In this document: piece by piece, positions 7,705 through 38,846 of the stretch
Layout of the letters: every line of letters starts with the position of its first letter
How positions within the stretch are numbered: position 1 is the stretch's first letter
NCBI GenBank assembly: GCA_964016885.1
Contig: OZ024743.1
Location: forward strand, 37,076,001 to 37,140,000
Source of the DNA: Eledone cirrhosa
Taxonomy: Eukaryota
Direction of reading: 5' to 3'
Length of the DNA stretch: 64,000 bases
Notes under the pieces: generated by a model
The model's database searches: none
The model's input: the letters and a program-made list of their open reading frames with translations, nothing else
Told to the model about the DNA's origin: nothing
Program-made: the position numbers and the translations under genes

Positions 7705-8445
7705 GTATGTAGGTATATGTATGTAGGTATATGTATGTAGGTATATGTATGTAGGTATATGTATGTAGGCATATGTATGTAGGAATAATAATTAAAAAAA
7801 AAAGGATTTTGCTCTACATTTATTGTATTCAGCCATGTAGAGCGAAAATTCTTTTTTAATTATTATTTGAATAACCAGTAATGTACTGGGTAATTGTTGG
7901 CCTTGTGCCTAAAGTAGAAACAATTATTTGAATATAGCAAAGCCGGTCATTGATCGCTCGTATACAGGAAACTGACTGGCCAGTCTGCTGATATGTAAAT
8001 CTGGCTGATCAATGGATCTGCAAATATGTAGATCTGACTGATCAGCCAGTCTGCTAATATGCAAATCAGGCCGATCAGTCATTGTATATTTTAGAAAATA
8101 TCATATATTTTCACTAGCTCTGACAGTTTGGCAGGTGAACATTAACCTGTACTGATGAAGGGTGATACCCAGAAACATTAGTGTCTGCAGTTCTGTTTAC
8201 ATGCCAACACAAGAGCAAGAATGAGGGGGTCATTCTACTGACATGGCTTTAAAAAAGAGGCTGTCTGCATAATTGCAAACGAATCGAATATTATTATTAA
8301 TATTCGAAAACTTCACATTACATTTTGTAGGAATATGTATACAGGAATATGTATATAAGTATATGTATATAGGTATATGTGTATAGATATATGTATATAG
8401 GTATATGTGTATAGGTATATGTACGTAGGTATGTGTATGTAGGTT
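7705..8445. repeat. 14-bp minisatellite (GTATATGTATGTAG)n split by an inserted block at 7784-8325
   Basis: Units at 7705-7783 and ~8330-8445. Confidence 0.8.
8147..8190 (+). ncRNA. Minimal type I hammerhead ribozyme motif
   Basis: ctgta-CTGATGA-a gggt gat accc a-GAAA-ca ttag tg-TC-tgcag. All three helices pair; GUC triplet at 8183-8185. Confidence 0.8.
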
Positions 8446-9999
8446 GTTTATTCATTTAAATATTTCCTCACCTTCCTGTTTTCAGCGTTATTTGTACATA
8501 ATATAATTAGGATGCCTGTTTGATGTGACAACGTCTAAATTGGTTGGTTTATGTTAACGAGATTTTAACTAGTTCATTATATGTGGTGTGGTGTGTATGG
8601 AATGCTCAGCCACTTTCACGTTAATTCTACGTGTAGGCTATTCAGTTGTTCCTCTTCTAAACTGGAACACTCCTCGTCGAAATCGACGGAGGACCCAACA
8701 AATAAATAACGTAAATGCAGACAAGGTTGCTCCAGGTAATTAAATTTATGCTAGTTAGTTTACATTACATATTTAATGCAATTAAAACCGTGCACTGACC
8801 TTAAACATATAAAGAAATTCTTCCAACCATGATATGTTTTCAAATTGAAATGTTTTAAATGGAAATTAAGGCCAATCTTCTGAGGCGATAATTTATTAAG
8901 AATAATATGATTAACCACGAACAGTTTTAAGCCTTTCAAATCTTACATCTTTAGGCAGGGGTTAGGCTTTAATACCTGTAGCTATGAGTGTTGAGTAGAT
9001 TTTCTAGCCTTGGTACATTATATATTCATACATACATGTATATATATATATATATATATATATTTTTTTTTTTTTTAAATATATATATATATATTTTGAA
9101 ATGCGCATAATAAAATACTTGGAACTCTATTAACCATCTTTTGATCTTATATTATATATATATATATATATATATATATATATATATGTGTGTGTGTGTG
9201 TGTGTGTGTGTGTGTGTGTATGTGTGTGTGTGTGTGTGTGTGTGTGTGTGTGTGTGTGTGTGTGTGTGTGTCTATACGTATATGTGAGTTTGTATGTTTG
9301 TATGTACACGTACATGTGTGTCTATATAAGTGTGTGTACATACATGTGTGTCTATATATGTGTGTGTATATATTTATGTGTGTGTGTGTTTGTGAATATA
9401 CACACTTTAATAGTGTTCGTGATAAAGCGTTAATCGTCAAGAAAGTTCCCTACATGCTCACCCGTAGGGCAATGGCGTTGAACTAATCTTGAGACACGAA
9501 ACTGATATAAACCCTAATACGACGTGAGAAAATGCCCAATTCTCTTAAAATAACTATCATAATCCTTTTGTTTATTCAAATGATGAGTGTCAAAATTATA
9601 CCTGGTGGTCAGTTTTGTTAGGGAATGCCGAGGATAAACAAATTAGAGCGGTAAAATATTCGTAAACACTGTAGAATTTGTATGTTAATAAAAATATGTC
9701 TCCACTGCAAATTAAAGTGTCTTAATTAAAATATATAATTATATGCATTAGACGGGATATCATCAGTATCTATGGGATACTAATTAGTATCTCCCCCTTC
9801 ATCTCTCTCTCTCTCTCTCTCTCTCTCCCTCTCCCTCTCCCTCTCTCTAATATATATATATGTATATATATTTATATGTGTGTGTGTGTATCTGTGTATG
9901 TGTATATATATGTATGTGTGTGCATGTGTGTGTATATATGTATATATAAATGTGTGTTTTTATATATATATATATATATATATATATATATATATATAT

Positions 10000-10223
10000 T
10001 AGTAATAATAATAAAATTGAAGACTAAAATCCAAAGAGGGCTCGATAAGGGAAATATATATCAAATATATAAGAACCGTAGAGCAAATATTTATTAAAAT
10101 AACAGATTAAAGTTTAAGCAAAGAATCGCTGCTTTCACCCTTAACGGGATCTTCTGAAGATCCCGTTAAGGGTGAAAGCAGCGATTCTTTGCTTAAACTT
10201 TAATCTGTTATTTTAATAAATAT
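10000..10223. mobile_element. PLE-type terminal fragment forming a perfect 68-bp-arm palindrome centred on a hammerhead-like core
   Basis: 10087-10154 is the reverse complement of 10156-10223. The right arm reads CTGAAGA-tccc gttaa ggg t-GAAA. A related single arm lies at ~26438-26503. Inserted in (TA)n. Confidence 0.75.
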
Positions 10224-10328
10224 ATATATATATATATATATATTGTGTGTCTGTGTGTGTGTACATATGTGTGTATGCATATGTGTATATATGTATATAT
10301 GTATATATATATGTGTGTGAATAATATA

Positions 10329-35929: not shown

Positions 35930-36225
35930 GGGTGTGTTAGAGAGGAGGAGGATGAGGAGAGGGGGAAGAGGGGAGACAGAGGGAAGAATGAGAGGTAGAG
36001 GGGAGAGAGATAGGGATAAGAGGGAAAGAGGGGAAGAGAGATGGGGGAAAGGGAAGAGGGAGAGAGATAGGAGGAAGAGGGAGGGAGGGAAAGAGAGAGA
36101 GAAATATATAGAGACAGAGAGGGGGAGGAGAGAGGAGGAAGAGAGAGAGGGGGAGAGGGTGAGAGGGGGTAGAGAGAGGGAGAGAGGTAGAGAGAGAGAG
36201 AAATATATATATAGAGAGAGAGGGG
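35930..36225. repeat. Purine-rich (G/A) low-complexity tract
   Basis: Almost pure A/G on the + strand. Confidence 0.9.
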
Positions 36226-38580
36226 TGGGATGGATGTTTGTGTAAGTGAATTGAAAGATAGTAATAGACCCAAGGTAGTGAGATTTATTGTGAGAAATAA
36301 TTGTTTCTACTTTTGGCACAAGGTCAGCAATTCACCAGTACATTACTGGTACTTTATTTTATCGAGGCAAAGTTAACCTCAGCGGGATTTGAACTCAGAA
36401 TGGCAAGGGCAGTAACTCTATGCGTCAAAGCATGGTGTCCGACGCTTTACCGATACTGCCAATCGACCGCTAATAGAGAAATAATTGTTTCTACTTTAGG
36501 CACAAGGCCAGCAATTACCCAGTACATTACGCCAATAGAGAAATAATAAGGTAGAATAAGAGAGAAAGGGGTGAAAACATAATAGGAGAGTGTGATATAA
36601 GATGACACAAATTTTAGAGATAATGCTGTGAATGGGTGAGTGTGTGTGTGTGTGTGAGAGAGAGTGTGTGTGTGTGTGTATGTGTGTGAAAGAGAGAGTG
36701 TGTGTGTGTGAATGAGTGAGAGTGTGTGTGTGTGTGTGTGTGACCCTAGAGTCCTAACCTTTCCTTTCCTTTTCCAGTTTTAAATATTGTTAGTATTTTT
36801 CTAATTATTTCATAGTCATTCATTTATTTAGTTACTCCGTTATTATTTCATTTCTGTTTCTTTTCTGATTAAATATTTATATTTTCATTTATTGCTATAA
36901 ACCTTAAAAATAAAAGAATATCGACGTTTATCAAATAACTGTTTCTACTTTAGGCACAAGGCCAGCAATTACCCAGTACATTACTGGTACTTTATTTTAT
37001 CGACCCCGTAAGGATGAAAGGCAAAGTTAACCTCGGCGGGATTTGAACTCTGGCTGTAAAGGGACGTAACTATGCTAGAAAACATGGCGTCCAACCCTCT
37101 ACCGATACTGCCAATTCACCGACCCTTTATCAAATAACCGACGTTTATCAAATAACGAATGAGAATGAATGACAAAAGAGCTGAATGTATGTGAAGTATG
37201 TGAAAGTATCTGAGATATAGTGAATGTCTAGGGAAAGGGAAAAGATAATAGAATGTGAGAGGGGGAAGTACTACACCTTCTAATGTGTTATTTTACATGG
37301 ATATTTGCATGCAAAAGAGGTGGGTAACATCACCTATTTGAAACCACAAGCATGACATGCCATGGCGCATAAGCAGTGAAAGGGTTTGTGTGTGTATGGA
37401 CACAGCATGGCCAAATCGTGAAAATATTTTAAATTATAAACATTATGAAGGATGTAGTGAAATAACTAGCTTAATAATTAAAAAAAAAATACATATTTAA
37501 CAATCTAAATTCACAACTTAAATTTGAACACTCTAATAGAGGCGGTATCCTGCATTTGAAATATGGTAATGAAAATGTTAATCTATGATGCCATTTGGTG
37601 AGGAGGATGTGTGGCTAAGTGATGTCTAGAATTGCCCTTTCTAGAATTTTGCACATTGTAAAGTGATGGGCTGTTGTGATTTTATTTCATTTCGGTAATT
37701 ATTTCCATTTAAAATTCTAATAAGTTTGCCAAACTTTGATATCAAGGATTCTCACACCTTTTTTTGCCATCGACCCATTTCATGGAATCCTTCACCCACC
37801 CACCCTCATTTACTCCAGGCATGTAGGAATATATATATATATATATATATATATATATATATATATATATATATATATATATATATATATATATATATAT
37901 ATATATATATACAAATTTAGTACAGCATTAACGAAGCTTTAGGCTGCGGCTAAGCTAACGAATGCAGATTCGGAATGTAGCTTTAGCACTCGATGGAGAA
38001 TAATACCCCAGAGTAATAACAATACGTTTAGACACCTTTGAAAATCAAATATAGCGACCGGCAGTCCAGCCGCATTGCCATAGCAACGAAAAAGACTGAA
38101 CTCAGGGAAAGATTTTTTGACTGACCTGGACCATCGCGCGGAGATCGAATGTAACACATAACGCATATCGTATAGCATACGATATACATCACATATAACA
38201 TACAACATCCACGCTAGGTTTCTGTAAATCCGAAATCGACTAATTCCGCTTGCAGGGGTTTGCAAGTTAATGGCCTTTGACGACAGAACAAAGGATTTAC
38301 TTCGTCAACAAGTCTTGCGTTCTATAGCCTCAGCGGGTGTGTTCTAGCAGTAAATTTCGCTATAGACACGTGATTTTCTCAAAGGTTTTGGCGGTGAATT
38401 CGAAATTTGAGACAAAGGAATGAAATTCCCTTAGACAAACCGAATTAAGCACTCAACCAGATATATAAGATATATATATATGTGTGTGTGTGTGTGTGTG
38501 TGTGTGTGTGTGTGTGTGTGTGTGTGTGTGTGTGTGTGTGTGTGTGTGTGTGTGTGTGTGTGTGTGTGTGTGTGTGTATA

Positions 38581-38846
38581 ATAATATGGAAAACGAAAAA
38601 TCAGTGATGCATCGGAACACAATTTATTACGTATTATAATTGTTTCCCCGGCGAACAGCTCGAGGTGCGATCTGTTCAGAAAGAGGATTTGCTTCGAAGT
38701 CACTAGACGTATCTGAGGAACTTGCGAATCCAGAGTTAGGTTCGATCTACAAACAGATCGCAGCTCGAGCTGTTCACTGGAGAAACAATTGAAATTCGTT
38801 AATAAATTGTTCCGATGCACCACTGATTCTTCGTTTTCCATATTAT
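38581..38846. mobile_element. Imperfect ~95-bp-arm inverted-repeat insert related to the 59 kb extended hammerhead
   Basis: Arms at ~38581-38676 and ~38752-38846. The right arm ACAGATCGCAGCTCGAGCTGTTCACTGGAGAAAC resembles 59181-59214. Confidence 0.65.

Follow-up and report, generated by a model that had tools for sequence, protein, structure and literature searches.

We analyzed a 64,000-nucleotide stretch of the Eledone cirrhosa genome (contig OZ024743.1, positions 37,076,001 to 37,140,000; C4:37076001-37140000), hereafter the window, which is rich in (TA)n and belongs to a genome of 3.0 Gb. A masked fold-back scan of the window returned 15 palindromes. They were sorted into families by self-comparison and by genome pattern searches, the latter because a genome DNA search with 74 nt of family B gave no candidates. 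The palindromes of families A (11280, 24870, 33914, and 42550), B (10087), C (7784), D (15884 and 22749), E (38581), and H (24612) are our subject; the remainder, which we take to be SINE-like (short interspersed element) or MITE-like (miniature inverted-repeat transposable element), lie outside the main finding. A first-pass annotation had cited five of these stretches, all present where it placed them, and had claimed that fold-back at the hammerhead ribozyme recurs in unrelated families of Penelope-like elements (PLEs). The palindromes are real head-to-head PLE stubs lying in (TA)n.

The family B stub (10000..10223) consists of a tailed arm (10000-10154, sense −) and a tailless arm (10156-10223, sense +) that join at a near-palindromic TTC-A/T-GAA word, and its parent is a 3.26-kb PLE in locus L031. 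The 68-nt arms reported at 10087-10223 are indeed 100% complementary around a 1-nt spacer, but the CTGAAGA at 10154 on which they were said to be centered is a junction product, because its T comes from the inverted arm; the parent reads CAGAAGA. Family D is represented by a head-to-head stub centered on helix II (15833..16002, spacer 15941-15945, tail confined to the left arm) and by a stub joined at helix I (22720..22860, CTGATGA 22749-22755, tail on the right arm only) from which the GAAA and helix III are deleted. Family D carries a canonical type I motif and the copy at 15884-16002 is centered on helix II, but this form proved rare. The stretch at 38581..38846 (family E) is a genuine hammerhead with a long helix II (CTGAGGA 38713-38719, GAAA 38782-38785); its direct arm starts at 38677, about 36 nt 5′ of the core, and its inverted arm (38581-38676) ends within helix II. 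At 7784..7867 there is a genuine short fold-back but no ribozyme: a CTGANGA box precedes the hairpin in 0 of 20 family loci, the left strand of the 9-bp hairpin is mostly inverted arm, with no more than 5 bp paired in the parent, and the sequence is the tail of family C, ~330 nt from the ribozyme of that family. The true type I hammerhead motif of family C lies at 8147..8190 (+), in a retrozyme-like tandem unit of ~440 nt with one hammerhead per unit (also in L046, L047, L050, L052, and L054) and a PLE-style tail. A SINE piece has inserted at 7874-7929 into this copy (7784-8330).

Family A head-to-head stubs lie at 11200..11405 (tail on the left arm), at 24870..25062 (tail on the right arm), and, from a diverged subfamily, at 42550..42762 (tail on the right arm); the first is centered at a YYAGTY word in loop II of the parent hammerhead. 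Numbering the A of this word as +1, the stub at 33906..34032, whose arms were both scored tailless, has a G before +1 on its direct arm, whilst the stub at 22943..23065 joins a tail-only inverted arm to a tailless arm that starts at +6, a form impossible by fold-back. Solo stubs occur as well: a tailed family A stub at 26175..26304 (−) ends near +3, and a tailless family B stub at 26432..26503 (−) ends at +2.

The predicted enrichment of palindrome centers near hammerhead cores was found in a sample of the genome comprising 784 kb of untargeted DNA (80 ten-kb loci minus the central kb of each, plus the window). A full three-helix core lay within −45 to +60 nt of the center in 11 of 92 palindromes, compared with 26 of 1500 positions drawn at random and none of 920 shuffles. 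A further 25 of the 92 palindromes belong to families A, B, and D; helix II-centered copies are invisible to the core test because half of the core is lost. Within 260 nt of the center a core was present in 20 palindromes, always 3′ of the center, at +5 to +217 nt. Thus, as the annotation had proposed, head-to-head palindromes lie near a hammerhead in several PLE families, and they do so far above chance, but it was wrong on the fold-back mechanism (see below) and on two of its examples, the CTGAAGA at 10154 and the stretch at 7784-7867. More hammerhead families, with palindrome centers 15-217 nt 5′ of the core, were seen at L141, L145, L150, L151, L159, L160, L162, L166, and L181, and each further family with such a 5′ center predicts its own start site. 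In the whole genome, two family B patterns gave 21,736 and 28,945 exact matches, 1338 close family B palindromes were found, and family A arms number over 11,000. An assembly artefact was ruled out, since the arms differ, the ends are family-specific, and the arrangement recurs at thousands of loci.

The full family B unit in L031 has direct 461-nt repeats 3258 nt apart and a 557-nt inverted arm. Its open reading frame (ORF), P0001, encodes 712 amino acids with reverse transcriptase (RT) and GIY-YIG-type motifs (YRDD and IVY..YIG). P0001 had no match in Pfam, NCBIfam, or the PDB; it has 1201 homologues at E<=1e-20, the best one bearing PF01541, and its atlas neighbors carry GIY-YIG and RVT_1 at 0.96-0.97. 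Families A, B, and G have the two features of endonuclease-bearing (EN+) PLEs, namely a single ORF with RT and, at its C terminus, a GIY-YIG endonuclease, and direct plus inverted pseudo-long terminal repeats (pLTRs) with an optional tail. P0001 contains RWR, DKT, a CxCx5C linker, and CxxC and CxH around E and N, and no CCHH, so that by the motif criteria of PMC8557442 (section 11) family B matches the Hydra clade, as judged from its predicted protein; an earlier ‘Neptune-like’ label was dropped because the Hydra motifs fit. Families A and G sit 3′ of ORFs related to that of family B, with RWR, CxxC, and CxH in A and CxCx5C, CxxC, and CxH in G. Because all three thus have Hydra-type ORFs, they are kin, and calling the families unrelated was an overstatement. 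The window holds a 5′-truncated family G PLE (14929..15786, +) with an ORF piece (14929-15483; C-terminal zinc linker and GIY-YIG-type), a hammerhead (CTGAGGA 15654), and a tail. Families D, E, and H are assigned to PLEs by layout alone (hammerhead, tail, (TA)n, inverted arm), and no ORF match was listed at the family D and E loci checked.

The parents of families A, C, D, E, and G have the CUGANGA or U3-A8 box, GAAA, UH, and three helices of a hammerhead. The core boxes are canonical type I in C, D, E, and G, whilst A has the U3-A8 variant, and core tallies identify position 7 as the chief variable in A, D, and G. The U3-A8 variant, described in PMC4209133, occurs in two families, A (parents L219, L220, L226, L111, and L166) and H (L148:2030-2075). 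The family H palindrome of the window (24459..24830) is centered at 24652-24653, ~40 nt 5′ of a U3-A8 hammerhead that is retained on the − arm; its right arm is cut by a family G stub (24694-24830). Upon folding, the family A parent forms a three-way junction with a 32-nt loop II (z −1.98), whereas the minimum-energy folds of short C, G, and B stretches were not three-way junctions. Helix II is long in family A and its loop holds the likely start site, so that most A copies retain only the 3′ half of the motif. The family B parent box is CAGAAGA in 68 of 74 copies with intact upstream sequence and CTGAAGA in 0 of 74; it has A in place of U4 but keeps the helices, and a few palindromes show CAGATGA. 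The family B motif is therefore hammerhead-like and likely weakened. None of the 101 Rfam matches at E<=1 was a hammerhead. At the base of helix II, two identical bases face each other in place of the usual G-C pair: A-A in families C and E, T-T in families B and G, and C-C in D (window positions 8159-8175, 10161-10173, and 15661-15671, and the D and E parents).

We next turn to the arms. Their ends were mapped by anchoring on the sequence 3′ of the GAAA and extending against natural long copies. Families A, B, and D each have two 3′ ends, a short end and a tail end, and a tail was present on exactly one arm in 144 of 158 head-to-head pairs (A 66/68, B 44/52, D 34/38). Eight B pairs scored with a tail on both arms were excluded from the 144; when rechecked, three were one-tail pairs, one had a partial second tail, and two were visible on a single arm, several of the eight being scoring errors. 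In 57 of the 144 one-tail pairs it is the tailless arm that extends further 5′, by more than 8 nt, and in 22 of these the tailed arm is tail-only. If a cDNA had copied itself, it would have to be the tailed arm, reaching furthest 5′; the 57 pairs therefore need two primings on RNA. By hand count of the first 50 of the 1338 B palindromes, about 17 join at a 7-nt near-palindrome with a 1-nt loop, four at a zero-loop word, and eight at a 5-nt repeat with a 17-nt loop. Words with a 0-1-nt loop would allow two antisense strands to anneal well, whereas one strand would hardly fold. Ribozyme helices serve as the joining microhomology in a minority of junctions.

The inner ends of the arms pile up at the YYAGTY word. 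Of 102 untargeted family A arms, 86 stop no more than 10 nt from its A and only four pass −10. The 55 family B arms end at a rate of 0.052 per nt between +10 and +1 compared with 0.002-0.009 in five other intervals, and 21 of them extend past −40. For family D the rate is 0.05-0.11 over the 5′ half of the motif and 0.012 and 0.004 beyond −10; as D loci were picked by a helix II pattern, only the arms extending to helix II (89 of 107) were counted. The word takes only the forms TTAGTY and TCAGTY in the A, B, and D parents, and lies in loop II in A and at helix I in B and D; because its position differs in this way, the cliff tracks the word and not a helix. YYAGTY fits what we take to be the Pol II initiator consensus, YYANWYY, in A, B, and D, but not in E. 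Where the base before +1 is not accounted for by the partner arm, G makes up 15 of 25 cases in B, as opposed to 9 of 94 at other ends (p 4e-7), and 11 of 19 cases in A, as opposed to 20 of 79 (p 0.012); the +1 sets were enriched by searches for non-T, which carry no bias to G, and elsewhere G was sometimes excluded as the parent base. A hand count of 100 B copies, the first of 2734 that carry non-T at −1, gave G56, A23, and C21, and several pairs carry the extra G on both arms. The A of YYAGTY is thus likely the capped start of the element RNA, as far as sequence can tell; PMC11702581 describes an extra G at L1 5′ junctions that marks full-length insertions and is interpreted there as the cap. 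In one subfamily (L008, L043, L167, L265, and L267), the 5′ ends of family B accumulate a second time near −48 to −55, which may be an alternative start or reflect variant upstream sequence.

Since PLE RTs lack RNase H, one RNA can be read twice. On balance, we lean towards a model in which the stubs are PLE ends inserted in (TA)n, their inner ends mark the likely capped RNA start, and their two arms arose by twin priming. An internal promoter would start the RNA at the A of YYAGTY. The endonuclease would then nick both (TA)n strands, and each nick would prime RT at either the short end or the tail end, two fixed sites 55-90 nt apart; both ends are seen in the copies, and the priming is suggested by analogy with PMC11167929. 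Copying from the site at the front of the RNA, or of a short RNA from the downstream repeat, would give a 60-170-nt cDNA that runs off the cap and often adds one C, which may account for the extra G that we see. The tail-primed cDNA would come second and often stop early, as seen in the tail-only arms. The two antisense cDNA ends would anneal at a nearby self-complementary word of the kind seen at the junctions, ribozyme helices included, and repair would finish the insertion. Priming on the rear repeat would give long arms, such as those observed in L031-L045.

In this model the ribozyme is a neighbor and a source of microhomology, not the trigger. Ribozyme-cleaved RNA was considered as a template and rejected, as tailed arms show no pile at the cleavage site (B 0/44, A ~3/66, D 2/34), although this test is weak because arms ending there are short. 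More tentatively, at a little under even odds in our judgment, twin priming may be programmed: a two-site RT complex would act on both target strands at fixed positions, with a single capped, uncleaved RNA as template, whose start would lie at the hammerhead or within it. If true, such priming would account for the one-sided tail and the inverted pLTR as well as for the abundance of solo ribozyme fragments. The family A RNA would then start past the 5′ half of the ribozyme, so that promoter position would decide whether a ribozyme exists at all.

Twin priming could be right whilst the cliff has another cause, either a YAG 3′ splice site or stalling of RT on RNA structure, which we regard as rather unlikely. 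In A and B the word does hold a YAG, preceded by a T-rich stretch, and families D and E are without a sharp pile at +1. In Drosophila virilis, the end of the Penelope intron maps to the 5′ end of helix I, as described in PMC4209133, and the start lies 46 nt before a 75-nt intron according to PMC2377424; this makes the splice-site reading the main rival for the cliff. Against these readings, the junctions have no constant exon upstream of them and retain the AG itself, the cliff of family A falls in an open loop and not at a helix, and the extra G is specific for +1.

The fold-back proposed by the first-pass annotation, in which a single cDNA snaps back on a hammerhead helix and primes its own copying, is improbable. 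Junctions at helix I (window 22749, L095) and at helix II (window 15884, L130, L332) do occur, the 5-nt repeat used by eight of the 50 B palindromes leaves a foldable 17-nt loop, and the arms within a pair seem by eye to be of the same subfamily, of which family A has at least four. However, helix II-centered forms are rare. An exact pattern for this form in family D gave one match against 710 for a shorter pattern (the longer pattern loses copies to decay, with L130 and the window copy as inexact cases), none was present among the first 50 close B palindromes, and none of 75 family A partner calls was seen to retain the 32-nt loop II. Loops of 0-1 nt are common, and solo stubs end at the same cliff as paired arms. 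The geometry of the 57 pairs is incompatible with copies of one cDNA, and the tail-only class among them refutes fold-back as a general mechanism. A third explanation, that the palindromes are ready-made short master elements copied whole or full palindromes trimmed by deletion, is very improbable: one junction type recurs (~17/50 in B) and palindromes are in general unstable, but junctions vary among copies within each subfamily, the tail side switches, and in 8 of 30 B loci a tail-only partner lies directly against an intact +1, which deletion would not target.

Several observations weigh against a capped start at YYAGTY combined with twin priming. The first concern the start. The first 100 family A copies with non-T at −1 gave C48, G43, and A9, the C excess being partly due to a TCAGTC parent subfamily and to the partner arm, and 27 of 102 A arms extend 1-7 nt beyond +1. 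Family D shows neither a pile at +1 nor an extra G, and its ends are most frequent at +5 to +7 (helix I) and at ~+20, the latter coinciding with the start of the search pattern. Of the 29 family E insertions, 12 stop between 19 and 37 nt 5′ of the core, without a good YYAGTY match, and 13 extend past −80, and the ends of family G are scattered (both families judged by eye). The only ORF-bearing B copy found with a front repeat, L031, does not start at +1. Other points concern the pairs. The tailed arm is longer in 24 of the 144 and level in 63, so that 87 fit fold-back as well, and the asymmetry of 57 against 24 is biased because very short tailless arms escape detection. The family E stub at 38581..38846 is tailless on both arms, an exception to the one-tail rule. 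Finally, arm ends carry an uncertainty of ~3 nt, the arms of one insertion are non-independent, and most loci come from contig C1.

The layout of these insertions is already published. EN+ PLE inserts with an inverted 5′-truncated pLTR, a one-sided tail, and a (TA)n bias are described in PMC8557442, which names the origin of PLE tandem and inverted repeats as an open question; palindromes at PLE inverted junctions, with a proposed self-priming on an antisense template, in PMC3846280; and solo and opposed minimal hammerheads in PMC4209133. The stubs share with the inserts of PMC8557442 and PMC3846280 the head-to-head copy, the tail at one end, junction palindromes, (TA)n, and a pLTR hammerhead. 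They differ in being mostly 60-170 nt long and numbering tens of thousands, in their tails (55-90 nt as against 30-40 nt), and in inner ends that cluster at a defined word and carry an extra G. Family B shares its ORF motifs and (TA)n insertion with the Hydra clade of PMC8557442, where it is placed by motifs; its unit is 3.26 kb compared with generally <3 kb in that paper, and its CAGAAGA core is non-canonical.

The closest parallels to the proposed priming lie in two other systems. In L1 twin priming (PMC11702581), both target strands prime on the RNA, the parts join by microhomology, and an extra G appears at the cap; there the position of the second site varies and the parts overlap very little, whereas here both sites are constant and the arms frequently overlap over their full length, hence the palindromes. 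The Poseidon protein PAc from Anolis (PMC11167929), a predicted dimer, cuts and extends both strands from two initiation sites bounding the tail on an uncleaved RNA, ribozyme cleavage not being needed. PAc is of a different clade and its sites lie inside the ORF, whereas here they lie ~40-130 nt before the B start codon, and the parts of PMC11167929 consulted do not address the inner junction. Family C resembles the non-LTR retrozymes (bioRxiv 10.64898/2026.07.22.740005) in its ~440-nt tandem unit and type I hammerhead; it adds a PLE-style tail and inverted arms, and its palindrome in the window sits at the tail and not at the ribozyme. Among the papers listed by searches of the open literature, none described twin priming or a cap signature for PLE junctions, and the start-site and twin-priming reading was not encountered there. 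The stubs in themselves are ordinary repeat debris. Their junction geometry argues for two primings on sense RNA and names the exact base where that RNA should start.

Some neighboring features were recorded in passing. An inverted arm of family A at L014:1400-1540 stops at +1 and is linked through a short templated duplication to a trimmed family B palindrome. A perfect 31-nt palindrome with a 3-nt spacer (window 21483-21547) has no relative in 1.16 Mb of sampled DNA. A ~190-nt repeat that we take to be SINE-like (6759-7391, 19706-19993, and 44139-46862) is present in dozens of copies, often nested both ways, which builds long inverted repeats. An 83-nt element at 42959-43041, presumably MITE-like by its resemblance to such elements, has 33-nt terminal inverted repeats and TA flanks and is unrelated to the ribozymes.

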